The translations under genes and the position numbers were made by a program. From contig CAZUIY010000061.1 in NCBI GenBank assembly GCA_964619975.1, positions 1 to 61,188 on the forward strand: a DNA stretch of 61,188 nucleotides. Reading direction: 5' to 3'. The notes beneath the pieces are model-generated. The model was not told the DNA's origin, made no database searches, and worked only from the letters and a program-made list of their open reading frames with translations. Shown piece by piece: positions 1 to 61,188 of this stretch. Every line of letters starts with the position of its first letter. Position 1 is the stretch's first letter. Origin of the DNA: an uncultured Gemmatimonadales bacterium. Its GTDB lineage: Bacteria; Gemmatimonadota; Gemmatimonadetes; JACCXV01; JAHWKZ01.

Positions 1-71
1 AGCATCCGAAAGCATTTACGAGTGTGCCACCTGAGCATTATACGCTGTTAGGCGATAGGTCTCTGAGGGTA
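1..71. repeat. Terminal direct repeat, left copy (probably the circular-assembly overlap)
   Basis: Bases 1-71 (agcatccgaa...ctctgagggta) are identical to 61118-61188. Confidence 0.95.
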
Positions 72-504
72 GTAGAAAGTAAATTAAATGTTCTGGTGAT
101 GCCGTGGCTCACTCTACGGCGGATCGTTAGGGCAAAATTAGGAATAGAAAACAATTAGAAATTATGTGGTTAAAATACATTCTGCACAAAATTCCGCTCA
201 TCCATTTCTATGGCAAATGGAAAACTATTCGTAGAGTAGACGGCATACTTGCTGGTAATATTTATGCGTACCAAGAGCGGGATTGCCAGCTATGTGGAAA
301 AGTTGAAAACCGCACAGCGGCACCCCAGTTTTGGACATAATTTCTTTTTGTGCTATTCCGACCGAAGGGAATTTTGCCCTAACGTTATCGGGCTTGGCGA
401 AGGTGGGCTTGTAGGATGCTCAATTTTAGCAGAATGTTTCTGCCCGCTTTTGCCAAACCCGTGTTAGTGGCAGTTAAATTATTAAACAATAAATATATTT
501 TAAA

Positions 505-720
505 ATGAAACACTTTATAGTTATCCAAATGACAATTGAAAAAGAAGAAATTGTCGGTAGTAGTAAAAATACTATTATGCAAAATATAGTAAGACAAATC
601 AAAGCGGAAAGCAAGGAAATTGCTATTGGTAAATTTGTTATTGCTACACAAGATATTAAAGCAATTAAAAAATTAGAGATTGAATGTTACGATTTGTCGG
701 AGTTGAAGTCGGTCGATTAA
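505..720 (+). CDS. Hypothetical protein in an AT-rich patch
   Basis: 71-aa ORF with an A-rich upstream region; no recognisable motif. Confidence 0.45.
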   Translation: MKHFIVIQMTIEKEEIVGSSKNTIMQNIVRQIKAESKEIAIGKFVIATQDIKAIKKLEIECYDLSELKSVD

Positions 721-832
721 TTGCCACTAACTGGTGGATATGCTCCAGTATGGCTAACGGTCTAAACATGAACAGATTAAAATTTCAATATCGGAAATCT
801 CATAACTCAACATTCCGAAAAACAAAAATCAA

Positions 833-1489
833 ATGACATCACAAATCAAAGCCGGAAAGGATCGTGTGATCCTGCGCCCAAAAGAACAAGAGAATAAAAG
901 AGAATCCATAGGCCCACACTCTGCTATCAAAACAAAGAGTGGTCTGTATGTTCCCGTTTACGATCAGAACGAGTTCGAACCCGATGTGTGTGATCAATAC
1001 GCATACGTTGTGGCCGTCCCTGAATCAGCCCGTGAACGAGTGGACACCAATAAATGGAGAACCCACGAGATCATTATCAAAGAAGGAGATTTATGCCTTG
1101 TCACACACAGCCTGAGAAAAAGACATTTGAAAATCGGTTGGCCGGACAAAGAATGTATCTCCATTCCATACCACCACATCTACGCCATTGTCAAAGACAA
1201 CAAACTTATTCCCAACGCTTGTCACAATATTTTGGAGCCTATCTTTGTAGGGAAAGAAGAACACACCGATGAATCAGGAGTAGTTGTTCTCAGCACAAGA
1301 ACCAGAAGTGAATCATTTGCCCGGGCAAAATGGATCAGCCAAAGTTTAAAGGACAAAGGAGTGAAGGAAGGAGATATTGTGGGTCTGGCTCCGGATATCA
1401 ACTACGAAGTAAAGTTTCAACAGAAAGAGTACTTTATTGTCGATACGGATTATGTGATGTGCGTGGTTAATCCTGAAATATTTGAATAA
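833..1489 (+). CDS. Tandem (two-domain) GroES/Cpn10-like co-chaperonin
   Basis: Two GroES-like units: DRVILRP..KTKSGLYVP..VVAVP..IKEGDLCLV..IYAIV, and NILEP..TDESGVVV..GVKEGDIVGL..YEVKFQQKEYFIVDTDYVMCVV. Confidence 0.75.
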   Translation: MTSQIKAGKDRVILRPKEQENKRESIGPHSAIKTKSGLYVPVYDQNEFEPDVCDQYAYVVAVPESARERVDTNKWRTHEIIIKEGDLCLVTHSLRKRHLKIGWPDKECISIPYHHIYAIVKDNKLIPNACHNILEPIFVGKEEHTDESGVVVLSTRTRSESFARAKWISQSLKDKGVKEGDIVGLAPDINYEVKFQQKEYFIVDTDYVMCVVNPEIFE

Positions 1490-1491
1490 AA

Positions 1492-1515
1492 AACGGGGAC
1501 TAATACATCCCCGTT
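1492..1515. terminator. Hairpin terminator between convergent genes
   Basis: AACGGGGA/TCCCCGTT stem between the gene ending at 1489 (+) and the gene ending at 1602 (-). Confidence 0.7.
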
Positions 1516-1601
1516 CGTTCTGTGTAATGGGCTAAATCAATTTTTCAAATCAATATTCCTGCTAATAATCAAAAAAGAAAAAGGCCACGAACTTCAACAA
1601 C

Positions 1602-1820
1602 TTATTTTTTGAAAGAAAACTTTTCGCCAAGTAATTCAATCCTTTGCCCAAGCACTTGCAGATACTCGTTCATTAATCTTGACTGTTTGTAAAGCAAGTC
1701 TTTGTTTTCTCTGTCTAAGTCAACAAATTTTTGCGTTCTCATAAAATCATTTAAGGCGTTTGTTTTTGTCGCCAACTCTTGTGCTTCGTTCAGAAGTCTT
1801 TCGTAAAATGAATTATCCAT
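1602..1820 (-). CDS. crAss001_48-like small coiled-coil protein
   Basis: ERLLNEAQEL..LNDFM..F..L....DLLYKQ...M..YLQVL.QRI pattern; TATATTTG promoter element on the - strand near 1854-1861. Confidence 0.7.
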   Translation of the reverse strand: MDNSFYERLLNEAQELATKTNALNDFMRTQKFVDLDRENKDLLYKQSRLMNEYLQVLGQRIELLGEKFSFKK

Positions 1821-1898
1821 TTTTCGTGGGGTTTAAGTTAGTTAAGTGAAAAGCAAATATAACCAACCACAACCTTCAATCACGGACATTTAACAAAT

Positions 1899-1931
1899 TT
1901 TGTCTATTGTCAATGATATTTCCTATTTTTG
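1899..1931 (+). promoter_or_regulatory. Bacteroidota-type primary-sigma promoter for the glycan cassette
   Basis: TTTG (1899-1902)-N21-TATTTTTG (1924-1931), matching the -33/-7 TAnnTTTG consensus, 26 nt before the ATG at 1958. Confidence 0.65.
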
Positions 1932-1957
1932 ACATCGAATCTTTAACAACCTGAAAA

Positions 1958-2425
1958 ATGACTATCGAACTTACTCCTGTTGACGGCACCGGTGCATTTG
2001 ACCTCAACGAAAACGCATTCATCCTCGCTCAAACAGAGGGAGACAATACACGGGTGTTTTACCGCCACCAAGATACCAGTGTTCGGCAAGAAATCCTCGT
2101 AGAAGAAACCGTTCTGGAAATCTTTGACGAAAGCCAAGCCGATGCTGCAAACATCGTGGCCACAGAAATTATCAAGGACGACATCGTTCACCTTGTAGCG
2201 ATCAACAAGAATCGCGTTGTGAAAATCTTTGATACCGATCCATGCGAGTTTAATTACAACCTTGCCTCTGCTTCGATCAATGAGATTTTGGTACACAACG
2301 GAGACAAGACCTCTTTTGAATCTGATCTTGCCGGAGATTATTCACCAAGCGCCTCCGCAAGTGAATCTCCAAGCGCTTCCGAAAGCGAGTCTGCCAGTGC
2401 TTCTGAAAGTGCATCAGAGAGCTAA
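1958..2425 (+). CDS. Beta-rich protein with a C-terminal Ser/Ala/Glu repeat tail (candidate glycan acceptor)
   Basis: Ends in SPSASASESPSASESESASASESASES; no signal peptide. Confidence 0.8.
   Translation: MTIELTPVDGTGAFDLNENAFILAQTEGDNTRVFYRHQDTSVRQEILVEETVLEIFDESQADAANIVATEIIKDDIVHLVAINKNRVVKIFDTDPCEFNYNLASASINEILVHNGDKTSFESDLAGDYSPSASASESPSASESESASASESASES
2342..2422 (+). repeat. Low-complexity (S-A/S-E)n coding repeat
   Basis: 27 codons with Ser at nearly every second position, using varied synonymous codons. Confidence 0.85.
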
Positions 2426-2435
2426 GACCTAACAC

Positions 2436-2975
2436 TTGACTGTTAAAGATCGAATAGAAGAAGTTATCTCAAATGGCGCGACAGGCTCTTTCCCCGAGTA
2501 CCACGCCATTTGGGATGATATTCGAAAATCAAGGAAAAAAGTAAACCTTCTGATTTTTGGGGTCGGCCACGACGCATTGCTCTGGAAGGAGTGTAATAAA
2601 ACCGGAAAGACCCTCTTTATTGAAAACAATCCAAAACTGGCCAAGCTTGGAAAAAAGTTAGGATGTCAGGTTTCCGGAACCGCGTACAACAGCAGAAAGC
2701 TATCGAAAGACAAAATCCATCACCCTTCTATCCTGGCTCTGAACTTAGGTAGAGAAGTCGAGAACACCGAATGGACACACATCTTTGTTGACGGACCAAA
2801 ACAAGAATGCCACGGCAGAATCAAGTCTATTTTCAATGCCTCTCGATTGGCAGGGAAAAATACGATGGTCTACGTAAGTAATTACGACAGGAAATCAGAA
2901 AAACTCTACACCGATCATTTCTTAAAAGTCAAAAGTGTAGTTGACCGATTAGCGGTATGTCAAAAACGGACGTAG
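2436..2975 (+). CDS. DUF579 (IRX15/GXM-like) SAM-dependent polysaccharide O-methyltransferase-like protein
   Basis: NLLIFGVGHDALLW..N..GKTLFIE..WTHIFVDGP..GRIKSIFNA..VYVSNYDRKSEK parallels the DUF579 motifs FGLGHDS..W / VF.E / DV.MVD.P / GRM.AI / VFVHD..R..E. Confidence 0.7.
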   Translation: MTVKDRIEEVISNGATGSFPEYHAIWDDIRKSRKKVNLLIFGVGHDALLWKECNKTGKTLFIENNPKLAKLGKKLGCQVSGTAYNSRKLSKDKIHHPSILALNLGREVENTEWTHIFVDGPKQECHGRIKSIFNASRLAGKNTMVYVSNYDRKSEKLYTDHFLKVKSVVDRLAVCQKRT

Positions 2976-3673
2976 TTTACACCATTGGTCGGTCCTGTAA
3001 TTGGGGTGATTTTGATGAACTCCGATACTCTCTACGATCTTTAAGTCTTTTTACCAGTATCGGACAAGTCTTTATAGTAGGACACAAGCCAGAGTGGGTT
3101 CAGAATGTCATTCACTTACCGCTGTCGGATCCATACAAACACAACAAGGATGCGAATCTCAACAACAAGATAGTTCTGGCTTGCTGTGACCAAAGACTGA
3201 GCGATCAATTCATACTCATGTCCGATGATCAGTATTTCCTGCAACAAACATCTACCGGGGAATTACGACCAGTTATAAGCAACAACTCCCACAAGCCAAA
3301 AAGCAAAGATCAGTGGAATCGCAGAATGACCAGAACCCTTAAACATCTCCAAAAGCGCGGACATTCAACAAATGTTTTTGAGGCACACTGTCCTTATTTG
3401 CTTGAAAAGGCAAAATATCCATCGATTGTTTTGGACTATTGCTTTGGTGAATCAGTTGGAATGTGTGGAAACACACTGTACTTCAACACCCTTGGAGTAA
3501 AAGGAGAGCCGAATAAAAACTATGTCACGGGATCAGGACGACTTGCTACACTACAGGAAATCACTAAAAAAGTCAGTGGATTCAGATTTTTAAACATCAA
3601 CCACGGAGTGAACGATGATCAGAAACAATTCCTTCAATCCAGGTTCCCAGAAAAAAGCCAATATGAAATCTAA
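2957..3673 (+). CDS. Stealth-family-like sugar-phosphotransferase
   Basis: DVVYT (CR1-like), DELRYSLRSL..FIV (CR2-like) and FILMSDDQYF (FIL.NDD-like). Confidence 0.65.
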   Translation: MSKTDVVYTIGRSCNWGDFDELRYSLRSLSLFTSIGQVFIVGHKPEWVQNVIHLPLSDPYKHNKDANLNNKIVLACCDQRLSDQFILMSDDQYFLQQTSTGELRPVISNNSHKPKSKDQWNRRMTRTLKHLQKRGHSTNVFEAHCPYLLEKAKYPSIVLDYCFGESVGMCGNTLYFNTLGVKGEPNKNYVTGSGRLATLQEITKKVSGFRFLNINHGVNDDQKQFLQSRFPEKSQYEI

Positions 3674-4280
3674 TGGACTTTTCACTGGTAAAAAAGTTGT
3701 TCTCATAGGTCCAGCCCCACACATTACTGAAAAATTTCAAGACTTTTCTGATTACGACCTTGTGTGTCGTATCAACCTACAGGTTCATATGCCTGATGTT
3801 TTAAAAAAATACACAGGCGACAGGATTGACGTGTGGTTCCCTACCGACAAAATGATCCGGGACAACCATTCATGGGCAGAGTATGATCACGTTAAAATTG
3901 TCAGGGTAGGTGAGAGCCGAAAAAGATACTTCACCAAAGACACAAGACACAAGTTTTCCCGCATGAATGGGTTTCTAAGCCAAGTCCGTCGAGAAATAAA
4001 ATGTGAGCCAAACAGGGGTATGAAAGCAATAATAGATATATGTATGGACCGGCCATCGGAGCTATACATTACTGGATTTACATTCTATCAAAAAGATGTT
4101 GCGTACTACGATAATTACTGTCCTGCCTCCGGGCAACAAAGAATCTCGAAATCAAAAGGAGATGTGGCCAACCACAGGCAACGGCCTCAAATCAAATATT
4201 TCATTGAGAATATACTTCCGTTAAAGTTTGTGAGAATCGATCAGGAGCTTCGGGATGTCGTTGATCAATTTGATTCGTGA
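3663..4280 (+). CDS. GT29 (sialyltransferase-like) glycosyltransferase
   Basis: L-motif-like KKVVLIGPA..DYDLVCRIN..YTGDRIDV, S-motif-like PNRGMKAIIDI..ELYITGFTFY, and VS-like H....QIKY. Likely start is the ATG at 3663, overlapping the upstream stop. Confidence 0.65.
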   Translation: MKSNGLFTGKKVVLIGPAPHITEKFQDFSDYDLVCRINLQVHMPDVLKKYTGDRIDVWFPTDKMIRDNHSWAEYDHVKIVRVGESRKRYFTKDTRHKFSRMNGFLSQVRREIKCEPNRGMKAIIDICMDRPSELYITGFTFYQKDVAYYDNYCPASGQQRISKSKGDVANHRQRPQIKYFIENILPLKFVRIDQELRDVVDQFDS

Positions 4281-4723
4281 TATTCCAGAGCAAGTTTAGC
4301 CTTCAGTTCAAAAAAAGCCTTCCATTGCCGTCCGTGTTCCCCCTCTAAAAGTTCAGACTTTCCTTTGTTGTGGTAGTTGTCGTGCATCGCTAGGGTTTTC
4401 AGTACAATGTTTTCGGGGTTCAACTTGTACTTTGGATAGGATCCTTTTGGAAGGACGTGGCTGAAGCAGCACAGCCATCGCGGAAGATTCTTGTCTGGGC
4501 TTTCGGTTATGGTTTTTCCGCTGATTGCACACACATGAGCACGTTCAGCCCATATATCGTAGAACAACTGTAATTCACCGGCAGGTTCTTTTTTGGTTTC
4601 TGCCTTTCTTTTGCGGAGCCTGTTTTGATTCCCCTGGTGGCAGTATTTGCGGTCAGAAATCTTTTTGACGATCAACCTTTCTTCTCCGTGGCAGGTGCAA
4701 ATTCCTTTTTTGTATTGGATCAT
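4265..4723 (-). CDS. HNH/NinG-Ref-like putative nuclease
   Basis: CAISG..FSHVLPKGSYP..ENIVL..HDNYH pattern. Confidence 0.55.
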   Translation of the reverse strand: MIQYKKGICTCHGEERLIVKKISDRKYCHQGNQNRLRKRKAETKKEPAGELQLFYDIWAERAHVCAISGKTITESPDKNLPRWLCCFSHVLPKGSYPKYKLNPENIVLKTLAMHDNYHNKGKSELLEGEHGRQWKAFFELKAKLALEYHESN

Positions 4724-4926
4724 TGCCCGAAATTAACAATTTTCAACAATTTAGGTGCCGGACAATGATTAACTTTGGATTTATGAACTTCGACCATCAC
4801 AGAGGCCAACAGCTAAACGACCATCTTCGAATCTTCGATTGTGAGTGCGAAGGCGACGAATTCTGTGAGGTCTGCGATCCTGCTGAGTATCTATTGAGGC
4901 GGGAGGAAGAAAAATATAATATGTAA
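4723..4926 (+). CDS. Small Cys-containing hypothetical protein
   Basis: CECEGDEFCEVCD cluster; the start may be the Met at 4765. Confidence 0.45.
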   Translation: MPEINNFQQFRCRTMINFGFMNFDHHRGQQLNDHLRIFDCECEGDEFCEVCDPAEYLLRREEEKYNM

Positions 4927-4937
4927 AACCAATCACT

Positions 4938-5183
4938 ATGAAAACGACAATCATCCTACTGTTCTCTATTTTTATGTTCTCCGGAACCCCTGAACCCACT
5001 TTCTGCGACTGTTGGCCGGAAGGCTACAAGGAAGGCTGGTGCTACCATCAAGGAAACTGGTGCGCACAGGCCACATGGACACCGCATTGCCCATACCCTG
5101 AATACGGAAAGGACAAATGCAAAGATGGGTATAATCGGGGATTCAAGAAAGGTGAGGCTGATTACAAAGAAAGGAACTGGTAA
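4938..5183 (+). CDS. Small secreted Cys-rich protein
   Basis: MKTTIILLFSIFMFS signal peptide, six Cys, and GYKEGW / GYNRGFKKG repeats. Confidence 0.65.
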   Translation: MKTTIILLFSIFMFSGTPEPTFCDCWPEGYKEGWCYHQGNWCAQATWTPHCPYPEYGKDKCKDGYNRGFKKGEADYKERNW

Positions 5184-5188
5184 TCAAG

Positions 5189-5575
5189 TTATCCCGAAAT
5201 TTCTATTTCCGTAAAATTGTAAGCCAATAGTTTCTGCATTGCAACCTTTGAGTTGGTCACGTCAATATTCCCGTCACCATCAATGTCTGCATGGGTTAAT
5301 CCGGGAGCAATACACCCTCGTAATTGACGAACGAAATTTGCAGGATGCACAAGAATTTCAGATCGTCCAGGAACATTTTGAATCCAATAACACGGGCCAA
5401 ACTTCGGTGATGTGTGCTTGATCATCGAATAGGTTCCGGCGGGTATGCAGCTCACACTTGTTTGATTGTTTTTCCACGGTAATTCCAGACTTGGAAAGGT
5501 TGCGCCGTCCGGACATTCGAAAAGGCCAAGTGTTTGTTTTCTGTCGTCTGACTTTCTGAAAAGTAATAGTTTCAT
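5189..5575 (-). CDS. DUF5675-family putative endolysin
   Basis: TLG..LELPW..N..SCIPAGTY..NVPGRSEILVHPAN..LRGCIAPG signature; next to a holin-like gene. Confidence 0.8.
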   Translation of the reverse strand: MKLLLFRKSDDRKQTLGLFECPDGATFPSLELPWKNNQTSVSCIPAGTYSMIKHTSPKFGPCYWIQNVPGRSEILVHPANFVRQLRGCIAPGLTHADIDGDGNIDVTNSKVAMQKLLAYNFTEIEISG

Positions 5576-5973
5576 GGTTTTCTTATTTTATCAGCAAAGC
5601 AACCTTCAGGACATACGGATTGCGCTCTATCTATTTTATCTGTCAGTTCCTGTATTTGCCTGTTGAGTTTCGCTATTTTCTGACCGCAATCTGCTTCTTG
5701 AATAGAATGGCTTTCTACTTGTTTGCGCTGTCTTTCTTCGAGTATTTCCATACGCTCGATCAACTTCTTTCTATTGGCTTCCATGTGGTCCAATTCGGAT
5801 CTGTATCTCTCGATAATATGGTCCTCGTTTTCGATTTTTGCTGCCTGAATCCTGACTTCAGCTTCTTTGACTTCCACTGGATGTTTTGCCTGGTAACGCA
5901 AATATCCCATCACTCCGCCTACTGATCCGAGTAACCCTGCTGCTCCTGCAATAACAATGTTAATCCACTCCAT
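5572..5973 (-). CDS. Putative holin (N-terminal TM plus coiled coil)
   Basis: Hydrophobic N-terminus WINIVIAGAAGLLGSVGGVMGYL; stop overlaps the endolysin start. Confidence 0.55.
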   Translation of the reverse strand: MEWINIVIAGAAGLLGSVGGVMGYLRYQAKHPVEVKEAEVRIQAAKIENEDHIIERYRSELDHMEANRKKLIERMEILEERQRKQVESHSIQEADCGQKIAKLNRQIQELTDKIDRAQSVCPEGCFADKIRKP

Positions 5974-5999
5974 TTTCCTTGTTTTTACTGGTTAAATAA

Positions 6000-7202
6000 T
6001 CACTGAGGGTACAGTTTTACTTTTTTATCGTGAATAATTGAAGGATGTCGCACCTGTACAGCGTTGTCACTGATAATAATTCCTTCTTGTCCTGTTTTGT
6101 AGGCTGGTCGTGCCATGAGTGATATTCCTCTTGATCCGATAGCGCTTATATCGTTTCCTTCCAAGTAGGATATGTTTTTAGGAACAGTTCCATCCCAAAC
6201 ATTTCGGGTAGCTGGGTTTTCAGCTCCCTGCGCAGGTTGGTTGAACACCCATTTTATGCTTGCCTGTGATTTAAATGATCTCGCAGACCAAGGAATGTAT
6301 GTAAGATTATCGAAATAAACCTGACCGATATTTCCTTCAAACTCTAAAACAGGCACGTCGTGAATCTGGCTGTATAGTTGGCTGATATAGGTGTTCGGGA
6401 AATTCTTGACATACATCAAAGCCTTGGTTTCGTTATCACCGGTTTCAATATGCGCCCTGATGATATTGATAGTCCGAACAGTCGTGCTACCACGGCTGTC
6501 TGCGTAGATGCAATACTCCGGAGCAGAACCTTCAAATATTGGGTTCTCCATTGTGAATCCGTCTGACCCTTGAATCCGTGCCTGGCAAATTTGAAATGGC
6601 CGTCCGTAATGCCAGCAATCTTTTGTTCCGGATCTATTGGATTGGCTGTTTGAACTCGTGGAATTGGAGAACCATCTGTCGTTGTTTGGCTCGTAAAGCA
6701 CACCCCATTCATTCATCAGCGTTCCGTCAGACACCCCCGATCGGTAACAAAAGTCTTCTACAACATTGAATTGGAATTGTGTGTTTTCAATTTTACATTG
6801 CTGCGCCCACACTCCAAGCACACCACGACCACATAATTCAAAGGCACAGTTCGAGATCACACTACCTCTTTGAGCCGCCTGAATCACTGCGTTTCTTCCA
6901 CCGCGAAAAACCACTCTGTCAATATCAAAACGACACAGGTATTTGGACGCGTTGTTTGCATCACTCGAACCATCTATTTTCATCCCTTGCAATGAAGGGT
7001 CAGGAGCAATCCCATCAATATTGCCTTGGATTATTATTGTACCGTTAAAAAGTCTATACCTGCGGGAATTTGTCCCCAATCTGTAGTAAATCGTCTGATC
7101 GATATGCCATGTCCGACCTTCGAGATCAAAGTCAGCCATTCGCTTATTCGATGCATGGGCTTCGTCAAACTTTTCTTGTAGAATCTCGCTATCTGTTTTC
7201 AT
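6000..7202 (-). CDS. Right-handed beta-helix (pectate-lyase-like) protein; candidate tailspike/depolymerase
   Basis: N-terminal D...LQ..FD.A motif; repeated beta-helix rungs (IDRVVFRG, ISNCAFE, IENTQFQ, MENPIFEG). Confidence 0.6.
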   Translation of the reverse strand: MKTDSEILQEKFDEAHASNKRMADFDLEGRTWHIDQTIYYRLGTNSRRYRLFNGTIIIQGNIDGIAPDPSLQGMKIDGSSDANNASKYLCRFDIDRVVFRGGRNAVIQAAQRGSVISNCAFELCGRGVLGVWAQQCKIENTQFQFNVVEDFCYRSGVSDGTLMNEWGVLYEPNNDRWFSNSTSSNSQSNRSGTKDCWHYGRPFQICQARIQGSDGFTMENPIFEGSAPEYCIYADSRGSTTVRTINIIRAHIETGDNETKALMYVKNFPNTYISQLYSQIHDVPVLEFEGNIGQVYFDNLTYIPWSARSFKSQASIKWVFNQPAQGAENPATRNVWDGTVPKNISYLEGNDISAIGSRGISLMARPAYKTGQEGIIISDNAVQVRHPSIIHDKKVKLYPQ

Positions 7203-8187
7203 TGATGCTGTTTTTATCTGCTTGCTGACCCAAAATATTAAACCCCTGAACCGAAGATATTATTTGAACATTTATATGAATTGCGTTTGAGAACTTTGAG
7301 GACGATGCCACCATGTAGTAACCACTAGTTTCGACTCGATATGTGTTTCGGGTTGTTCGGGCTATTTCCGTCCACTCGTTATTTTCCAATCGAAACACAG
7401 CCCAATCAGTCAGGGTTTCACCCGTCCAAAACAAGTCAAGCCCTGAATGGGTCAATACTGCAGTAGTGTTCAATGGTTGCTGGCCGCAGATATTGATAGT
7501 CCCCTCACCGAACGATGTAATGGGCCCATATTCCGCGAATCCTGAAATCATAATCACGACTTCAGTGCCGGCAGGAAATGGAAATGTAACCGTCCAATCC
7601 TGTTGCGTGGGGTCGTATGGGTCATTGTACACTGACGGGTATTGCCCGAGATCGTGCCAGTACTGGATTAGCGGAACGGGGTCAGTGCACGGCGAATCGG
7701 TGCAGTTATCAATTGTTGGTGACGTGCCGGGATTACAGATACACCAAACCGGCCAATTAGGACAACTTGAAGCTGCTACCCAATTGGTATTATCACATCC
7801 GCCTACGCCTATCTTCCACAGTAGTCCGTCGTAGGGTCCGTAGTTACCGATATTCCCCGTGCCGGTGCTGTAATTACTCTGAATGTCCATTGCGTAAATA
7901 CCATCTTCAGGCACGGTGAACGCGAAGAATTTAGGCGCGTAGTGAACATTACCGCCGCAGCAAGTCGGGGACGTAGGGTGTTGCAAAACGCACTCAAAAT
8001 GGTTCTCGCAATTATAGTTGTCAAATGCTACGGTTACGCAATTAGATAGGTTTATGGCGGTTTCACAAGTATTGTTCGGGCATTGAGCCGTAGCCGACCT
8101 TACGCAATGTGAAAACATACCCGCCAATATAACCAGCGTTGCCAGCAAATCCACCGACCATTTTGCTCTATTTGAATTTACCATCAC
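7189..8187 (-). CDS. Secreted Cys-rich beta protein with a partial T9SS C-terminal-domain-like tail
   Basis: Signal peptide cleaved before Gln (SATA|QCPNNTCETAINL), multiple Cys pairs, C-terminal FNILGQ. Confidence 0.65.
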   Translation of the reverse strand: MMVNSNRAKWSVDLLATLVILAGMFSHCVRSATAQCPNNTCETAINLSNCVTVAFDNYNCENHFECVLQHPTSPTCCGGNVHYAPKFFAFTVPEDGIYAMDIQSNYSTGTGNIGNYGPYDGLLWKIGVGGCDNTNWVAASSCPNWPVWCICNPGTSPTIDNCTDSPCTDPVPLIQYWHDLGQYPSVYNDPYDPTQQDWTVTFPFPAGTEVVIMISGFAEYGPITSFGEGTINICGQQPLNTTAVLTHSGLDLFWTGETLTDWAVFRLENNEWTEIARTTRNTYRVETSGYYMVASSSKFSNAIHINVQIISSVQGFNILGQQADKNSINENR

Positions 8188-10566: not shown

Positions 10567-13500
10567 CTAAAGTGGTCGGTCTTCTGTTTTGGATTCTTTC
10601 AGTCTTTTCTTTTCTTCACGGATGTATTTGTCGATTTCTCGCTGAAAAGGAATTTGCGTTCCACCGACTAAAAGAAGCGATCTTTGAACATCATTTATCA
10701 GCGACATCATTACTAATGTCTCATTTTCTTCAGGTGTCAATTCTACTCCACGTTGCTGCTTGTCAATTATAGCGTACAAGTCTGTTGCGTTATCAAGAGA
10801 CGATTCAACATCACCGTACAGGTAATTTACCATAGGCAACATCGCTCCGTAGAAATCAGCCTCTGATTTATATCCTCCAAAATCAAACGGCTGAGAAAAA
10901 TATCTACTTCGGGTCCAGTCCAAGAGTTCCTTCAATTCCTCCTTAGATTCTTTGGTCCCTTTTTTCTTCAGAGCCATACTATAAATACCCGTAGCCATTA
11001 ACGCGGCTATTTTTGAAGAGTTACCAAATCGACCTCCGGCCAAAAACGCGATATTACTTTTTAAACTTTCCTGAACACCGTCGAAAGACATCAATTTCTC
11101 CTTTTCTTCATCATCTCCATTAAAGGCAGCAATCACATATCCCACTCCCCACACATACATAGCACCGCTTATTATTGCTCCAACACCTTCTCTTGCCGCA
11201 AGTTTTCTATCTTTATTTTCTCCATACAGAAATGATTCCCTAATATTTCGCATTATATTGTACTGTTCCAGAAAAGCGAAGTTCTGCAGTACCATTACTA
11301 ATTTTGCGACATCATTTCCCGCCTTTATACCACCCTTCCCTCCGGGGCTTAAGAAATCAGGTGCCACTCGAATAATTTCCCTCTGACCTGCTCTTGTTTT
11401 GGCTCCTTTAAGTTTTTCGGTACGAGCGTCTGCAAATCCTGAAGCAGAATTTATCGCATCAGAATTGGCCTCTATATATGCATCAGGATCATTATTAAAA
11501 TCTTTGACGTTAAATTCTTTCCCGGAAGCCCTTTTAAATTCAAGCATAAAAGAAGGCAGCCACGATAAGTTATTGGTCATTCTCTCTGGAAACGACTGAG
11601 CCTTTCCTGCTACGGTTTTAATTACATTCGTAGCCTTGCGAACTCCGCGTTTCCCTGCTCTCATACTTGTCCTGTCACGCTCCGCAAGAGATTCAAGGTA
11701 AATGTCCTGTAAGAATGAGCTCCCCGTTTTATCCATCAGTTTTCTCGCACCTTCATTTGTAAATGATGTAGAACGAAACTGTAGTGATTTAGCTATTTGA
11801 CCATAAGGCATTGCCGAAGCAGTACGAACAGTCTCTACTATCGGTTCAACTATCACCCTGTGTTTCGAAATAAGTGCACGAGCATAGAAGCCCATTGTTA
11901 ACTTACCAAAAACAGACCTTCGGTTTTCATATTCTGTCTTTATACGGCTTTTCAGAGCTTCATGTAGTGCGGTTGCATATTTAAAAGCATCCTTATCGGT
12001 GAGTTTGTTTCGTAGTTTACCAACCGCTTTCAATCCGGTTTTTATTGCTTCCGACAAATACAAATCCCTATTGGTAGAAAATATTTGTTCACGAACCAGG
12101 TTGTCCATATCCAAAGAAATCGGAGTAATTTTTCCGGATGTACGGGCAATACCACGATCCGATTTCATTTTTGTATTCGGATTCCCAGCCATACTCACTA
12201 CCTGAGAAACAAAGTCATTTATTCCGTCATTCGTAAAATCAAAATCCTGTCTGAATAATGGGAAATAGTATCTCGAATCTTCTTCTACAAACTTCTGGCC
12301 CCGTCGCTCATTGGCTGTACGCTGTCTCTCGGAATACTTTTTATTGTTCTCGACCAACCAAGAGTATAGTTTCTTTTCTTTCCCTGAAAGTGAGTTCAAA
12401 TATCCCTCAGCATCCACGCGGGTAATTTGTTCTCCATCGACCTCTATGGTTTCCTTCGGTAGTTCATCGTAGAGTTTTTGAATCTCTTTCTTGTCCTTTG
12501 CAGCCAGAGTTTCGAATTTCTCATCTCGAAGTAATTGTCCCCAATAATCGGAACCATCTTTTGATACATTCCAGTTACCCTGCATCATCGCCATCAAAAT
12601 CTTCTTTTGAGCAGTCTTTTTTACTGCCTTTAACCCGCCATCAACGATTTTCATATATCCATCCCTGTAATCTCGGATACTTTCATTGTACGACTTAACA
12701 ATTGGTCGGCTGAAAAATGGTGCAATTATGTTTTTATAAACCCATTCGCTTTTTCCTGTGCCAAAATAATCATCAAAGAACTGCCAGTTTTCAAGTTTCA
12801 ACTGTCGGACAGCACCCTCCAAATCTCTTCGATCTATTCCTTTTCTCTTAAATACGTCAGGTACGACCCAGCTTAGAAATTTACTTTCCCGAATAGTTTT
12901 ACCCGCTCCCCTGTTATTCATTTGTTTCGCTCCGTCAGTACTTATACTTTCAGATTCAAGCGAAGTGATGTACTCCTGCATTTTCTGCATCGGAGCGTAT
13001 CCGTAAGCAAGTTCTGTGGCTATATCCTGAAGCCTGACCGCTTTGTTGTAGTTCTTATTGTCTCCGGTTTCCCGAGACATCCGGACCGCTCTTTTCAGTT
13101 CCTTGACCTGTTCCTTTTGGAACTGGTTCATATCTGATTCATCCACCTGAATCAACATCTGCTCACTCTCAGCATTCATTTCTACCGCGGCCTGTTCCGC
13201 TTGCTCATTCAAATACTTTTGAGCTTCCTCAATTTTCTCAAGTGTTTCGTTGTACTCCGTTTCACCGATAATATCACGAGAAGCATTCAATATATTGTTG
13301 GCACGAGTAAGTGCCGCTTGCCGGGATCGGAATGTTTTTGACTCATCAAATACTACGTCAAGTTTGCGTTGAATTTCTTCCGGATCCGCGGGAGTTTCCA
13401 CTTTGTCATTTACTCTGTCGATCTTTTTAATCAGTGCATCTATTTGTTCTGACCGGACCTGAGCAACCGGACGAGTAGCGAGTTGATTCATCACTTCCAG

Positions 13501-16500
13501 AACCTCGTCAAGTGTCGCTGAACTTTGTTTACTGAAGTCGAGACCCAACAACTCAGTTACACGCCCTTCTTTATTGGTATATGTAGAGGACTGACGAAGT
13601 TTCTTGCTGACTTTTTTGGCTTGCTCCCTGATCTGTTTTATTTTCGAAAACCGGATTTGCTTCTCTACGTAAAACTCCAAGCCCTCAATAATCTTTTCGA
13701 TCTGCTTGTCAGTTTTCGCTTCTGCAGCACTTTTTAAGAACCTGGCAGGAACCTTTATTCCTTTGGGTAATTCCTTGACAACTTCAGCCAATCCTTTTCT
13801 TGCGGATTCAATTGCTTCTGCGCGGGATTTTGCCGTTCCTTCACGATTTAATGCGGCACGTAAATCTTTCCGTACCGCAGTCAACTTTTCCTGAATCTTG
13901 GACTTCACATCAGCAATTTTCTCTTTCACTCCTGTCACCGGAAGGTCTTTGCCAATATCCATTGAAGCAGCAATAAACTCTTTCTGTCCTTGTAACTTTT
14001 GACGACGATAACGGTCAACCTCTGGAATTGTAAGTAGAGTGTTGCCTGACATCCGGTGTTTATCCAATTGTTCTTGTGCATGATTCACTTTCATCCGGGC
14101 CTTACGTAAGGCAGAATCCTCTTTCACCTCAGCTTTTATTCCAAGTTGATCCCTGACAAACCTACCGGCCTTATCTTGTTGTGACTTGGTTAATCCTTTC
14201 CAAAAGTCAGTATTGGTAAAGTGATCCATAAACACCTTGTATTGCTGTGAAATTGTACCCGCAGCTTCTACCGCTTGTGCTGTTGCTTCCACAGCAAGGT
14301 TAAACGCTTCTTTGAATCCTGGCAGTCCAGACATCATTATGTCATCACTTATTTTACCCGCCCGGATATTATCAGCAATCGATTTAAATGGATTTTCTTT
14401 TGTCTTTTTTGGCTGTACTGATTTCTCAATTTGCTTTCGTGTGTACGGCTTACCTTCTGATTCAAGAGCGGCAGCACGTCTTATTGCTTTTGCAATATCA
14501 TCTACGGTAACTTTTGTGTCACTCTCGCCCATTCCTGCACTATCCAACTCTCCTTGAACGGCATCCCGGGCCTGATCCATGTTCATTCCATCCTCTGCGA
14601 AATACTCCCTTCTGAATGCAGGGCTTGGGTCAATGTTATCGTCTGCCTGAACAAAACTTTCGTAATTTATCTTTGGCAGCATCATCAAAATATCGGCTCC
14701 CATCGCTTCTCTTGCTCCGGTTTTCGCTTCTTCTCCTTGGTACTCGTAACCCGACTCAATAGCCGTGGCAACTCTTTCTTCGTTACTATCAAAGATCGAT
14801 TGCTCTACTTCTGAAAGTTCCTCGCTATTGGCTACTTTATAAGCCACACTACCAATAGCCAAATCAGATGCTTCTCCGGTTTCTTGGAATACAGCATACT
14901 CTTGTTCGGCTAAGGTTTGCTCTTGTTCAGCAATAGCCGATTCTCGTTCTGCGTAAAGAGCGTCCAACTCTTCTTCTGACATCTCGTCCAGCGAAGTTGT
15001 TGCTTCCTCCTGCGTTTCTCCTACAATTTCTTCTACGGGAGCATCAACTTCTTCGGTGTCCGATATTTCTTCCTGTGTCTGTTCTTCGACAGGTTCAACT
15101 TTCTCCGCTTTCGGTTCTGACTTGGCTTCTTCCTCAACGATTTTATTCCCGACAATCGCAGCAAGTTTCTGATTGATTTGCTCTATTTGTTCGTTCTCGT
15201 CGGTCAAAAACGATTCTTCGGTGTTGGCAATGACATCTTTCAAAGCCTGTTTTCTCTGGATCAACGGGAACGCTTTCATTTTCTGCTCCGTGGTCATTCC
15301 ATCTTTCATCTTGCCGTTGACTTCGATAAATTCATCTACACCAGCTTTCCAGCCTTCTGCGGTTTCCGGATCAAGATTCCCTGACTGCGCCTGAGCATCT
15401 ATGTATTGATCCACGTCCTCCCTGCCTTCGGGAGTCATTGCGGCTTCCGCGTTTTCGTAGTCCACCTCAGTCACTCCCTGAAGCATTTTTGGACTGCGTT
15501 CAATTGCCATTTTCCGGCCAGAAGTCACCACCGCAACCGGAGAAGTCATTAAAAGACCGGCGTTCAACCCCATTTTAAATGCGTGGAAGTTTCTATCCCA
15601 CACGTCTTGCCATTCATTGGGAGTAAACACTTCTTCGTCTTTCAGAATATTGGTTACTTCCTCCATTCCGATAGCCAAAGATTCCTGACCTACTTCTGTC
15701 AATCCCTCTGCTGTTGCACCCTTGGTTAAATTGAGTGCTGCACGTTGGACGTTGTTTAAAGTCAATTTCTCACCTCGACCAACAATAGATTTTATGACTC
15801 TGTTTGTAACATCAGTTGCCACCTTTCCCCCGGCTCCAACACCAAGCACGGCTTGTAAACCCGCTTTCTCCAATAAGGCTCCGACTGTTCCGTAAATGGC
15901 TTGATAGCCCATCTTTTCATGTATGGACATGTTCTCGGATCCGGGAGCTTCTTTGAGCATCTTATCTGCTTCTGCTGCCATGCCCAGGAACATGGTAACA
16001 TAACTTCCGGCCATCATTGGTGCGCTTTGAGCTACGGTGATAAGTCCAGACTTTAAGCCCATTTCCTTGGTATTCTCAGCAATAAATTCAGGAGTAGTTT
16101 CTTCGGTTGGAATGGAACCTGGGACTCCGGGCGTTCGACTTAAAAGTTTCAGTCCAAATTTCAAATCCTCTGCTTTCTCAGTCACATCTTCGTCGAGCAT
16201 TTTCATGTAGGCTTCCTGACCTTCTCCGCTTCCGAGTGTTCGGATATACCCGGCCATGCGGAGTGCTTGCGCTCCCATATCAACAAATCCGTCGATAACA
16301 ACATTCTGCATGGCCCCGGCAGTCGATCCTTTTTGGCTTCGCTTTGTGTACCGATCGGCCAATGCTTCGTCTCTACTGATTGCGGCCATGTCAGTCTCGG
16401 CTTCGAGTAGTGTGACCTGTTCTTTCAGTTGATCGTACTGCCGCCTTGTCTCGTTGTAGAATTGTTGTTCTTCAGGAGTGAGATTCAACAAGCCATCCAT

Positions 16501-16944
16501 GCGGTTTAAAATCTCCGCTTTTTCATTTGCCGTTGTAACTATTGAATCCCTTTGATTGATTAGGTCTGAAAATCTCAGATCAGCGTTTGCAGCGCGTTCT
16601 TCAATGAGTGGCATTGGAGTTTCAGCAATCACCTTTTGGCGCTCCACTGCTTTACCAACAACCTCTGATTCCTCCTTGCTTAAAACAGGTTCTTGAAATA
16701 CGCCAGTAGCATCCTGACGAGCTTCTGTTTCAAGCTTCGGAAGTTCGCCGTAATCCCGATCTTCTCTTTGGTTAAGGTCTTGGGAAACTTCTGACCCAGT
16801 CGTAGAGTCTTCGGAAGTAGTTTGGTCTGGACTTTTTTTTTCAACCACAGGTTCAGCACCCTCGGGCGGCTTCCATCCGGATGGTGAACTTACAGTTTTT
16901 GTTTCTTCTACGGCTTCCGCTCCTTCTGGTGGGGTCCAATCCAT
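10567..16944 (-). CDS. 2125-aa internal virion/DNA-ejection protein
   Basis: Last and largest gene of the ejection block; helical and Ala/Glu/Lys-rich; no catalytic motif recognised. Confidence 0.7.
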   Translation of the reverse strand: MDWTPPEGAEAVEETKTVSSPSGWKPPEGAEPVVEKKSPDQTTSEDSTTGSEVSQDLNQREDRDYGELPKLETEARQDATGVFQEPVLSKEESEVVGKAVERQKVIAETPMPLIEERAANADLRFSDLINQRDSIVTTANEKAEILNRMDGLLNLTPEEQQFYNETRRQYDQLKEQVTLLEAETDMAAISRDEALADRYTKRSQKGSTAGAMQNVVIDGFVDMGAQALRMAGYIRTLGSGEGQEAYMKMLDEDVTEKAEDLKFGLKLLSRTPGVPGSIPTEETTPEFIAENTKEMGLKSGLITVAQSAPMMAGSYVTMFLGMAAEADKMLKEAPGSENMSIHEKMGYQAIYGTVGALLEKAGLQAVLGVGAGGKVATDVTNRVIKSIVGRGEKLTLNNVQRAALNLTKGATAEGLTEVGQESLAIGMEEVTNILKDEEVFTPNEWQDVWDRNFHAFKMGLNAGLLMTSPVAVVTSGRKMAIERSPKMLQGVTEVDYENAEAAMTPEGREDVDQYIDAQAQSGNLDPETAEGWKAGVDEFIEVNGKMKDGMTTEQKMKAFPLIQRKQALKDVIANTEESFLTDENEQIEQINQKLAAIVGNKIVEEEAKSEPKAEKVEPVEEQTQEEISDTEEVDAPVEEIVGETQEEATTSLDEMSEEELDALYAERESAIAEQEQTLAEQEYAVFQETGEASDLAIGSVAYKVANSEELSEVEQSIFDSNEERVATAIESGYEYQGEEAKTGAREAMGADILMMLPKINYESFVQADDNIDPSPAFRREYFAEDGMNMDQARDAVQGELDSAGMGESDTKVTVDDIAKAIRRAAALESEGKPYTRKQIEKSVQPKKTKENPFKSIADNIRAGKISDDIMMSGLPGFKEAFNLAVEATAQAVEAAGTISQQYKVFMDHFTNTDFWKGLTKSQQDKAGRFVRDQLGIKAEVKEDSALRKARMKVNHAQEQLDKHRMSGNTLLTIPEVDRYRRQKLQGQKEFIAASMDIGKDLPVTGVKEKIADVKSKIQEKLTAVRKDLRAALNREGTAKSRAEAIESARKGLAEVVKELPKGIKVPARFLKSAAEAKTDKQIEKIIEGLEFYVEKQIRFSKIKQIREQAKKVSKKLRQSSTYTNKEGRVTELLGLDFSKQSSATLDEVLEVMNQLATRPVAQVRSEQIDALIKKIDRVNDKVETPADPEEIQRKLDVVFDESKTFRSRQAALTRANNILNASRDIIGETEYNETLEKIEEAQKYLNEQAEQAAVEMNAESEQMLIQVDESDMNQFQKEQVKELKRAVRMSRETGDNKNYNKAVRLQDIATELAYGYAPMQKMQEYITSLESESISTDGAKQMNNRGAGKTIRESKFLSWVVPDVFKRKGIDRRDLEGAVRQLKLENWQFFDDYFGTGKSEWVYKNIIAPFFSRPIVKSYNESIRDYRDGYMKIVDGGLKAVKKTAQKKILMAMMQGNWNVSKDGSDYWGQLLRDEKFETLAAKDKKEIQKLYDELPKETIEVDGEQITRVDAEGYLNSLSGKEKKLYSWLVENNKKYSERQRTANERRGQKFVEEDSRYYFPLFRQDFDFTNDGINDFVSQVVSMAGNPNTKMKSDRGIARTSGKITPISLDMDNLVREQIFSTNRDLYLSEAIKTGLKAVGKLRNKLTDKDAFKYATALHEALKSRIKTEYENRRSVFGKLTMGFYARALISKHRVIVEPIVETVRTASAMPYGQIAKSLQFRSTSFTNEGARKLMDKTGSSFLQDIYLESLAERDRTSMRAGKRGVRKATNVIKTVAGKAQSFPERMTNNLSWLPSFMLEFKRASGKEFNVKDFNNDPDAYIEANSDAINSASGFADARTEKLKGAKTRAGQREIIRVAPDFLSPGGKGGIKAGNDVAKLVMVLQNFAFLEQYNIMRNIRESFLYGENKDRKLAAREGVGAIISGAMYVWGVGYVIAAFNGDDEEKEKLMSFDGVQESLKSNIAFLAGGRFGNSSKIAALMATGIYSMALKKKGTKESKEELKELLDWTRSRYFSQPFDFGGYKSEADFYGAMLPMVNYLYGDVESSLDNATDLYAIIDKQQRGVELTPEENETLVMMSLINDVQRSLLLVGGTQIPFQREIDKYIREEKKRLKESKTEDRPL

Positions 16945-19058: not shown

Positions 19059-19582
19059 TATAGTAGTTTTTTGATGATGTAATTTTTCAGTTTCCGAACA
19101 GGACTTTTCTTTGATTCCACGTACTTCGCAAAGTCGTCAAAGTCCTTTGCAATAATCTGTTCTTCGAGTTCTTTCAAGTCCCTTGTGTTGGTTGGATTCT
19201 CGTGTACCGTAATCCAAACCAAGTCTGTTTTTGCAATCAAAGCCCGTTTTGTTCCGGCATCCGAAATCATAGCCAGAGGCCCAATCAAATATTCCTTTCC
19301 CCTGCCTTCAGTAATAACCACCACTTCTCCACTCATTAAAAAGTTTGGGTGTTGGTGCTTATGAATCTTTCCGGTCAACACAGTTCCGGCAGGAATAGAA
19401 ATCTGACGGACATACATATTCTCGGAGAACATGTGTTTGAGAGGACACAAAGGAGTATCGCCTTCAAACGACCCTTTGGACTTACGAATAGCATCTTCAA
19501 GCCTGCTGATACCCTCTTTGAAATCGGGTGCATCTTTTAGTTTGTCGATGTGGTTTTCGCTATGCTTTTCTACTCCTTCCAT
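19058..19582 (-). CDS. Cupin-fold protein of the tail/ejection module
   Basis: LKHMF..MYVRQISIPAGTVLTGKIHKHQH.NFLMSGEV..WITVHEN. Confidence 0.75.
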   Translation of the reverse strand: MEGVEKHSENHIDKLKDAPDFKEGISRLEDAIRKSKGSFEGDTPLCPLKHMFSENMYVRQISIPAGTVLTGKIHKHQHPNFLMSGEVVVITEGRGKEYLIGPLAMISDAGTKRALIAKTDLVWITVHENPTNTRDLKELEEQIIAKDFDDFAKYVESKKSPVRKLKNYIIKKLL

Positions 19583-61060: not shown

Positions 61061-61188
61061 AGCCTGAATGATCCGCCGTATAATGCGCGGGTGGTGCACG
61101 GTGAGGAACGAGCCGAAAGCATCCGAAAGCATTTACGAGTGTGCCACCTGAGCATTATACGCTGTTAGGCGATAGGTCTCTGAGGGTA
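61061..61188 (+). ncRNA. Candidate structured RNA of about 190 nt that continues across the circular junction to base ~133
   Basis: 61068-61080 pairs with 115-127; TATAATGC/GCATTATA and GGGTGG-GCAC/GTGC-CACCT inner helices. Confidence 0.5.
61118..61188. repeat. Terminal direct repeat, right copy
   Basis: Identical to 1-71. Confidence 0.95.

Follow-up and report, generated by a model that had tools for sequence, protein, structure and literature searches.

Known protein-glycosylation systems and the phage operon

To our knowledge, glycosylation of phage proteins by phage-encoded enzymes has been shown experimentally only in actinobacteriophages, where ordinary glycosyltransferases act on capsid and tail proteins. 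In the actinobacteriophages Che8, Corndog and Myrna, the C-terminal tails of capsid and tail-tube proteins are glycosylated by enzymes of the phage itself (Freeman et al. 2023, Cell Host Microbe 31:1216, as relayed in PMC12619734, PMC11256854 and PMC13313380). Here we describe an operon of four packed genes, g1 to g4, which lie head to tail at positions 1958-4280 on the plus strand of contig CAZUIY010000061.1; the whole stretch of 61,188 nucleotides is referred to as the window. g1 encodes an acidic protein that ends in a Ser-X repeat, and the other three genes encode a predicted DUF579-type methyltransferase (g2), a predicted minimal Stealth-family enzyme (g3) and a predicted minimal enzyme of the sialyltransferase fold (g4). 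The reading that we favor, with a probability of roughly 0.45, is that of a phage-encoded protein-glycosylation operon carrying its own substrate, in which the Stealth enzyme would phosphoglycosylate the g1 tail and g4 and g2 would elaborate the glycan.

As far as those accounts describe the actinophage system, the window operon would share with it the combination of phage glycosyltransferases and methyltransferases, the use of C-terminal tails as acceptors and the dependence on host nucleotide sugars. The two differ in that the actinophage acceptors are major capsid and tail-tube subunits, whereas in the window the candidate acceptor is a small acidic protein in its own right, encoded away from the structural module. 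They also differ in the enzymes, which in the window are of the Stealth, sialyltransferase-fold and DUF579 types, and in the host phylum, probably Bacteroidota. The operon would therefore extend phage-protein glycosylation to Bacteroidota phages, and would do so with enzymes that, as far as our searches show, have not been characterized in phages: no literature was found on phage Stealth proteins or phage GT29-like enzymes, nor any that links DUF579 to phages. A dedicated substrate gene makes the operon a compact and directly testable system, and its minimal enzymes (205 and 238 aa for g4 and g3) may serve as small tools for glyco-engineering.

Another system with a similar arrangement is that of the serine-rich repeat proteins (SRRPs) GspB, Fap1, PsrP and SraP of Gram-positive cocci, whose Ser-X repeats receive their sugars in the cytoplasm from dedicated enzymes with genes adjoining that of the substrate. 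g1 resembles them in its Ser-X dipeptide repeat and in its neighboring enzyme genes. However, tails of the g1 type are 13-28 residues long rather than hundreds, the enzymes are unrelated, and g1, which starts with MTIELTPVDGTG and ends with the repeat, has no signal peptide or LPXTG anchor visible on inspection. Among the window proteins that were scanned, neither the SecA2/Y2 accessory Sec system nor GtfA/B turned up. g1 therefore does not belong to the SRRPs. The chemistry proposed for g1 has its closest parallel in protists: Leishmania proteophosphoglycans carry Man-1-P-Ser, and Dictyostelium places GlcNAc-1-P-Ser on Ser-rich domains. In both cases, as is proposed for g1, a sugar-1-phosphate is attached to Ser within Ser-rich repeats. 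These protist systems are eukaryotic and based in the secretory pathway, and they are likened to g1 and g3 by chemistry, not by homology.

Operon layout and promoter-like element

An earlier annotation of this DNA, hereafter the sequence-only reading, had proposed the four genes, and all four open reading frames (ORFs) are present where it placed them (Table 1). A gap of 10 nt separates g1 from g2, while g2 and g3 overlap by 19 nt and g3 and g4 by 11 nt. The TTG start of g2 is supported by the homolog in L092, which has an aligned ATG start (L numbers denote related loci or contigs). For g4, the most likely start is the ATG at 3663 rather than 3615, because all homologs begin there, at the MKSNGLF position.

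The promoter-like element ends 27 nt upstream of the g1 ATG. What had been called a consensus promoter is borne out in part: the element is present, and its -7 part CTATTTTTGA (TATTTTTG in the window) is conserved without change and at a similar distance upstream of g1 homologs, at -34 in L006 and at -43 in L007, but the full pattern occurs 4 times in the window against 2.5 expected from shuffles and is not above chance. TAnnTTTG lies upstream of 8 of 82 genes, compared with 3.2% of random 80-nt windows. The divergent intergenic region at 1821-1957 contains a second TAnnTTTG (TATATTTG) that faces the 72-aa minus-strand gene, and it may hold back-to-back promoters.

Table 1. Features of the window and of related loci
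Feature	Position	Strand	Description
GroES-like protein	833-1489	+	218 aa; Cpn10/GroES domain in C-terminal half, 36 bits
Small gene	1602-1820	-	72 aa; divergent from g1
Promoter-like element	1899-1931	+	Bacteroidota type; TTTG 1899-1902, 21 nt, TATTTTTG 1924-1931
g1	1958-2425	+	155 aa
(Ser-X)14 tail of g1	2342-2422	+	SPSASASESPSASESESASASESASES, last 27 residues
g2	2436-2975	+	179 aa; TTG start
g3	2957-3673	+	238 aa
g4	3663-4280	+	205 aa; ATG 3663
Cys/His-rich protein	4265-4723	-	152 aa; convergent with g4; no Pfam match
DUF5675 protein	5189-5575	-	92 bits
Giant ORF	10567-16944	-	2125 aa; inside structural block
Giant ORF	19582-23970	-	1462 aa; inside structural block
Portal	35522-38029	-	Deposited relatives 22-26% identity
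Head-closure protein with Ser-rich segment	L021 1742-2161		
Head-closure protein with Ser-rich segment	L024 3593-4747		
Head-closure protein with Ser-rich segment	L030 3754-4176		
Head-closure protein with Ser-rich segment	L035 1850-2965		

g1 and g3 as a conserved pair

Comparison with related loci separates a constant part of the operon from a variable one. In the window, g1, g2, g3 and g4 are followed by a convergent gene for a 152-aa protein. In L006, whose g3 is 76% identical to that of the window (the reference for all g3 identities), g1 is followed by g3 at a distance of 3 nt, with no g2. L007 (76%) has a GroES-like gene, g1, g3 and a gene for a single-stranded DNA-binding protein (SSB), with neither g2 nor g4. 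L092/93 (54%) retains g1, g2 and g3 in the same order and with the same overlaps; it has no g4, and downstream of g3 lie two minus-strand genes, one of them a homolog of the window gene at 4265-4723. L099 (49%), a contig that starts inside g2, carries g2, g3 and a homolog of that same gene, again with no g4. In L001 (44%), g4 and g3 are convergent neighbors, and the contig ends at the expected site of g1. g1 and g3 are thus adjacent in the window, L006, L007 and L092/93, which are all the members of the subclade (g3 identity of at least 54%) that have upstream DNA. g2 recurs in L092/93 and L099, g4 recurs together with g3 only in L001, and the four-gene form is seen in the window only. The stable unit is g1 plus g3, with g2 frequent and g4 rare. 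The linkage of all four genes, which the sequence-only reading had put up for checking, holds for this pair and not for g2 and g4. That reading had also named homologous cassettes without the Ser-tail gene as a result that would speak against it. The opposite was found: the Ser-tail gene lies upstream of the Stealth gene in every close relative with upstream DNA.

g1, with a net charge of -22 and an isoelectric point (pI) of 4.05, consists of a conserved N-terminal domain of about 128 aa and a C-terminal tail. The Ser-repeat end that had been noticed from the letters is confirmed as a perfect (Ser-X)14, with Ser in 14 of 14 alternate positions. Both AGY and TCN codons are in use for these Ser residues, and the DNA itself repeats only in a degenerate 24-nt unit of 76% identity; an origin of the tail as a DNA-slippage artefact is ruled out by the mixed codons, the degenerate repeat and the retention of the tail in four homologs. 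No match to g1 was found in Pfam, PHROG, NCBIfam or the PDB, nor did the g1 alignment match anything in the PDB. Likewise, tblastn against 50,697 deposited phage genomes gave no match, and peptide-pattern searches of IMG/VR and JGI metagenome contigs yielded no relatives. Only three homologs were found, in L006, L007 and L092/93. Across the four proteins the N-terminal domains are 33-56% identical, and all four carry a Ser-X tail that begins at a conserved YSPS. The tails range from 13 to 28 residues, and their X residues vary while the composition is kept. That Ser is retained at every second position while tail length and X vary suggests selection on the Ser hydroxyls.

These properties could also belong to a protein that is never modified. 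In that case g1 would be an acidic early protein, such as a DNA mimic or an anti-defence decoy, the tail would be a flexible linker, and early expression would be what g1 and the enzymes share. The net charge of -16 to -22 and the pI of about 4.05 across the four homologs are in keeping with this, as are the position of g1 as first gene behind the promoter in an accessory region and the occurrence of a g4 homolog near an Acb2/Tad1-like anti-defence gene in L002 and L003. Yet the adjacency of g1 and g3 is kept while the neighbors change (L007 has GroES-like and SSB genes there, L092 has early genes, and g2 and g4 vary), and the strict pattern of Ser at every second position persists despite varying length and X. 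We consider an unmodified g1 quite unlikely.

g3, a predicted minimal Stealth enzyme

Stealth enzymes include the GlcNAc-1-phosphotransferase GNPTAB, the capsule polymerases CsaB and CsxA of Neisseria meningitidis, and CpsY of Mycobacterium tuberculosis. Those that have been characterized act on sugar acceptors in capsule or glycan synthesis (PMC11418123). g3 belongs to a family of phage proteins of about 240 aa, of which 86 were found. On its own it scores 25.1 bits against Stealth_CR2, below the cut-off of 39.4, and a single-sequence search of the PDB gave nothing useful; the Pfam Stealth_CR2 model is matched by 59 of 59 aligned family members. The family profile matches the catalytic domain of GNPTAB (E 4.5e-13) and also CpsY. 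Its alignment with GNPTAB is collinear through conserved region CR1 (DVVY), CR2-CR3 (48.8 bits, E 7e-12) and CR4 (FPxxSxxE), of which only the CR2-CR3 stretch is significant on its own. The C-terminal FPEKSQYE of g3 aligns with the CR4 sequence FPIPSQFE.

The catalytic residues point in the same direction. S89-D90-D91 of g3 align with N406-D407-D408 of GNPTAB, so that Ser replaces Asn and the NDD motif becomes SDD, and H144 aligns with the catalytic His-956. In GNPTAB, D407-D408 are metal and donor ligands and His-956 is the proposed catalytic base (PMC11418123). D90, D91 and H144 are invariant in 59 sequences of the g3 family. The GlcNAc-binding Glu-389 of GNPTAB has no evident counterpart in g3. 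An AlphaFold2 (AF2) model of g3 has a predicted local distance difference test (pLDDT) score of 95.6, and its 13 best Foldseek matches in the PDB are CpsY (8j2n, E 1.8e-11) and GNPTAB, with TMq of 0.60-0.73. From profile and model, g3 is predicted to be a minimal Stealth-family enzyme, a hexose-1-phosphate transferase with a GT-A-like fold, in line with the original assignment. Like known Stealth proteins, it has their fold, CR1-CR4 in collinear order, both Asp residues of the NDD motif and the catalytic His. It differs from them in being a bare catalytic core of 238 aa that lacks the spacer, Notch, EF-hand and membrane parts, and in that its proposed acceptor is a protein, not a glycan. Relatives of the g3 subclade in GTDB genomes are distant only (25-34% identity); they occur in Bacteroidales and cyanobacterial metagenome-assembled genomes and were left out of the host inference.

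g4, a predicted minimal sialyltransferase-fold enzyme

Alone, g4 has no match in Pfam (E <= 1), NCBIfam, PHROG or the PDB, and tblastn against the deposited phage genomes gave none. Its close relatives number only four, with names that are 'hypothetical' or absent. An exhaustive profile search retrieved 1270 representative relatives. In the multidomain proteins among these that were scanned, GT29 domains score above threshold, often in fusion with GT2 or methyltransferase domains, and 23 of 65 single-domain relatives match PF00777 (GT29). The profile of these 65 sequences finds CstII of Campylobacter (GT42; E 7.8e-5), followed by the mammalian GT29 enzymes ST6Gal1 and ST3Gal1. The AF2 model (pLDDT 96.5) agrees: its top 43 PDB matches are all sialyltransferases, with E down to 5.8e-6 and TMq of 0.4-0.6, and they include CstII, CstI, ST8SiaIII, ST6GalNAc2, ST3Gal1 and ST6Gal1. 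In a library of viral structures the model finds sialyltransferase-fold proteins of giant viruses, poxviruses, herpesviruses and uncultured phages (Caudovirales), and at least one uncultured-phage protein is already labeled GT29 in UniProt.

H171 of g4 aligns with His188 of CstII, which we take to be the catalytic base, and Y142 and Y148 align with Tyr156 and Tyr162, which presumably contact the CMP phosphate. In the N-terminal part, R36/N38 align with R29/N31. No substitution of H171, Y142 or Y148 occurs among the five closest homologs, and conservation of H171 reaches at least 90% in the 65 sequences. Fold and motifs thus lead us to predict that g4 is a minimal glycosyltransferase of the sialyltransferase fold (GT29/GT42 superfamily). 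The GT29 label first given to it holds as to the fold and the profile matches to CstII, ST6Gal1 and ST3Gal1, but not as to PF00777, which g4 itself does not match. C. jejuni CstII and CstI, together with eukaryotic and viral GT29 proteins, are its best profile and fold matches, and the N-terminal nucleotide-binding motifs are conserved between them. g4 differs in its length of only 205 aa, in its Glu at the position of CstII Arg129 and in its TM-scores of 0.5-0.6. A possible functional analogy is offered by Maf-type flagellin nonulosonic-acid transferases, which put such sugars directly on Ser/Thr.

Homologs of g4 also occur alone in four other contigs. Two of these lone homologs, in L002 (8001-9498) and L003 (2251-3748), have no Stealth, DUF579 or g1 gene with them and lie three genes from an Acb2/Tad1-hairpin-like anti-defence gene. 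A distant, fused relative of 486 aa is encoded in L090, an 83-kb viral contig (locus 2507-12631), next to a gene that matches CMP-Neu5Ac synthetase (PDB 1qwj, E 4e-5). By their N-terminal motifs, the neighbors there include APS-kinase-like, several GT2-like and sulfotransferase-like genes.

g2, a predicted DUF579-type methyltransferase

The DUF579 family is known from plants, where it comprises the GXM glucuronoxylan 4-O-methyltransferases and IRX15/IRX15L. g2 matches the corresponding Pfam model PF21729 (IRX15/IRX15L/GXM, formerly DUF579) with 68.1 bits against a gathering cut-off of 27.8 (E 9.2e-19) in two stretches, so the DUF579 assignment of the sequence-only reading stands. The g2 homolog in L092 carries the same precomputed match. 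Against TIGR01627 of NCBIfam, g2 reaches 72 bits, below the cut-off of 149.85. g2 is accordingly classed as a divergent, shortened member of the DUF579/GXM family, predicted to be S-adenosylmethionine (SAM)-dependent and O-methyltransferase-like. It is shorter than the plant enzymes, and its substrate cannot be plant xylan.

Homologs of g2 with 52-54% identity occupy the same position, overlapping the start of the Stealth gene, in L092/93 and L099. A PDB sequence search with g2 found no solved structure of the DUF579 family, tblastn with g2 found no DUF579 gene in the 50,697 deposited phage genomes, and peptide-pattern searches of IMG/VR and GTDB genomes gave no relatives. A methyltransferase gene also accompanies the Stealth gene in L094 and L096; that it is of the g2 type is ruled out, as it encodes a Methyltransf_24 protein with no significant BLASTP similarity to g2.

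Mini-Stealth genes beside Ser-rich proteins in other phages

A search of IMG/VR with a 14-sequence Stealth alignment found more than 514 relatives of g3, here called mini-Stealth, and 80 loci were kept. ORFs with Ser repeats are enriched near these genes, with 12 of 263 ORFs within two genes of mini-Stealth against 5 of 699 further away (Fisher p = 2e-4), in a test on 72 non-redundant viral loci that used crude greedy ORF calling, a strict definition of the Ser repeat and partial de-duplication of related loci. Without the clade of the window the near count is 9 of 259 (p = 0.004), and all of the near ORFs are on the strand of the Stealth gene. The enrichment points the same way as the linkage of g1 and g3.

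This recurrence bears on an alternative in which g1 plays little part. The enzymes g2-g4 could remodel a glycan of the host envelope (capsule, lipopolysaccharide (LPS)/O-antigen or a Bacteroidota protein O-glycan) and so block superinfection or mask or alter a receptor, with g1 accessory or unrelated. It fits this alternative that characterized Stealth enzymes use sugar acceptors (PMC11418123), that DUF579 and sialyltransferase-fold enzymes are also glycan-active, and that the cassette lies outside the structural module beside small accessory genes. Since no nucleotide-sugar genes are present in the window, host pools would be used, and an integrase-family gene in L092 hints at temperate phages among the relatives; serotype conversion is usually met in such phages. 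Such remodeling leaves unexplained, however, that g3 keeps a Ser-X-tailed protein as its one constant partner over a sequence divergence of 33-56%, and that Ser-repeat ORFs are enriched beside mini-Stealth in unrelated phages. Moreover, envelope glycan assembly is usually membrane-linked, and g1-g4 show no obvious signal peptide or membrane segment on inspection. For these reasons a role in host-glycan remodeling is unlikely.

Structural proteins of other phages provide a second comparison. A Ser-rich extension is found in four of five head-closure (Phage_HCP) proteins of these loci, and all four are encoded beside a mini-Stealth gene (Table 1). The Ser-rich segment directly follows the HCP domain and either forms the C-terminal tail or connects to an extra domain; the fifth homolog, in L025, is far from the Stealth gene and has no such segment. 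These extensions, and the precedent of phage-encoded capsid and tail-tube glycosylation in mycobacteriophages, would suit enzymes that glycosylate other virion proteins (capsid, tail or fibres), with g1 as a chaperone, adaptor or competitive regulator. In the window this is very unlikely, as g1 is the only protein with a Ser repeat or a Ser/Thr-rich tail in the complete genome and the structural block lies more than 1.7 kb away on the other strand. Two further proteins with poly-Ser-rich C-terminal tails are encoded in L026, at 179-694 (171 aa) and 2153-3181 (342 aa), 3-5 kb upstream of mini-Stealth; neither has a match in Pfam or PHROG.

The wider neighbors of mini-Stealth genes include SAM methyltransferases, GT2 enzymes, sulfotransferases and HAD hydrolases and, in some loci, whole nucleotide-sugar pathways. 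For instance, L096 (3943-8738) has in a row genes for Methyltransf_21, a DegT-type aminotransferase, an NAD-dependent sugar epimerase/dehydratase, Methyltransf_24 and mini-Stealth. Unlike the window, this phage thus encodes its own nucleotide-sugar synthesis. Another example is the glycan island of L098 (1-8498), with Methyltransf_24, TOD1/MUCI70-like, GT1-like and two SAM methyltransferase genes, a UDP-GlcNAc 2-epimerase, a hexapeptide acyltransferase, a GIY-YIG gene and mini-Stealth. Its trio of epimerase, acetyltransferase and Stealth presumably recalls the capsule genes of meningococcal serogroup A. That mini-Stealth genes turn up both in glycan islands of phages and next to Ser-rich phage proteins suggests a phenomenon that extends beyond the window genome.

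Proposed mechanism

We infer the phospho-sugar, ulosonic-cap and O-methyl chemistry, and the biological role, from the predicted enzyme families. In the cytoplasm of the infected cell, g3 would take UDP-hexose or UDP-HexNAc from the host and move the sugar-1-phosphate to hydroxyl groups in the tail of g1, whether those of the Ser side chains themselves (phosphoglycosylation) or those of a first sugar on Ser. g4 would follow with an acidic ulosonic sugar from a CMP donor, either Kdo or a nonulosonic acid. Any Gram-negative host supplies CMP-Kdo, and the distant g4 relative in L090 has a CMP-sialic-acid-synthetase-like gene as its neighbor. g2 would O-methylate one of the sugars, by analogy one that is acidic. 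g1, acidic to begin with, would thereby gain a phosphoglycan tail dense in negative charge. g1 and g3 would form the core of the system, and g2 and g4 would be optional elaborations. Modified in this way, g1 could serve as a virion coat, as a decoy or mimic, or as a ligand of a host factor.

A more specific proposal, which we regard as rather unlikely, is that the operon represents the first protein phosphoglycosylation in a bacterial virus. Here mini-Stealth would put sugar-1-phosphate directly on the Ser residues of a (Ser-X)n carrier, and g4 and g2 would cap the chains with methylated acidic sugars. If true, Ser would be a new class of acceptor for Stealth enzymes, and this would be the first demonstration of protein phosphoglycosylation in anything but a eukaryote. 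The protein would end up bearing a polyanion akin to teichoic acid or nucleic acid, suited to be a decoy, an anti-defence mimic or a virion coat. The mini-Stealth genes in hundreds of uncultured phages would then mark a widespread and unrecognized modification of Ser-rich segments in phage proteins.

Several observations weigh against glycosylation of g1. We know of no Stealth enzyme that uses protein Ser; the known acceptors are sugars. About 60 of the 72 mini-Stealth loci have no Ser-repeat neighbor by the criterion used, and the enrichment test is rough in its criterion, its crude ORF calls and its partial de-duplication. The N-terminal domain of g1 has no recognizable fold or family in the database searches described above, and the lone g4 homologs of other phages imply that g4 does not need g1. 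The genomic setting does not point to a structural role either: in the window, small early-type genes share the strand and side of g1-g4, and in L007 and L092 the g1 and g3 pair has replication and early genes around it. The view of g1 as a virion protein is not supported; g1 is found among early-type or accessory genes outside the structural block.

The mini-Stealth homologs of deposited actinophages, which are distant and unannotated, likewise sit among replication or miscellaneous genes, and this raises the question of DNA as the target. The enzymes would in that case hypermodify phage DNA, placing sugar or sugar-phosphate on a hydroxymethylated base as a means of escaping restriction. Phage glycosyltransferases that decorate 5-hydroxymethylcytosine with diverse sugars, Kdo-like acids included, have been described (bioRxiv 10.1101/2023.12.21.572611), and mini-Stealth homologs are found among replication genes in Gordonia phage BrutonGaster and in L007. 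Against this, no C5-methyltransferase, TET/5mYOX or thymidylate-synthase-like hydroxymethylase domain was found in 34 scanned proteins, which include every non-structural ORF of at least 200 aa, and the linkage to g1 would be left unexplained. DNA hypermodification by this cassette is highly improbable.

Genome, host and surrounding genes

The same 34 proteins contain no domain for nucleotide-sugar synthesis, as the sequence-only reading had stated, and this now covers every such non-structural ORF of a complete genome. An exact direct repeat of 71 bp at 1-71 and 61118-61188 indicates that the contig, about 61.1 kb long, holds the whole genome of a phage, either assembled as a circle or terminally redundant. 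Positions 1-8000 have no blastn match among the 50,697 deposited phage genomes. The structural genes are on the minus strand at about 5 to 38 kb and include the portal (phrog_6547), one virion protein and two giant ORFs. The replication genes (primase-polymerase, AAA ATPase, RuvC-like and HNH) are at 38 to 55 kb, and the strand of g1-g4 otherwise holds many small ORFs across the circular junction. L001 encodes a counterpart of the giant ORFs with 3111 aa and faint acetyltransferase matches.

Relatives of the portal among deposited phages belong to Flavobacterium, Cellulophaga, Tenacibaculum and Maribacter phages of about 60 kb in 86 of 87 records, and Shine-Dalgarno-like sites are present upstream of only 5 of 82 genes. 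Both results agree with the Bacteroidota host guessed at the outset, and the host is probably a member of Flavobacteriia. By its sequence divergence, the phage appears as a deep new lineage of Flavobacteriia phages. The GC content of the cassette (0.43) matches that of the genome (0.41-0.47), which rules out a recent horizontal acquisition of the cassette.

Upstream of the operon, the N-terminal half of the GroES-like protein at 833-1489 resembles a second, degenerate Cpn10/GroES copy, and a homolog of this gene also precedes g1 in L007; the protein may be a phage co-chaperonin. On the other side, the DUF5675 gene adjoins one whose 133-aa product combines a hydrophobic segment at the N-terminus with a coiled coil, and the two genes may form a lysis module. 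Homologs of the Cys/His-rich protein encoded at 4265-4723 (55-60% identity) adjoin the cassette in L001, L092/93 and L099. This gene possibly lies outside the glycan system, and its product, judged by eye, has the appearance of an HNH- or NinG-like nuclease.

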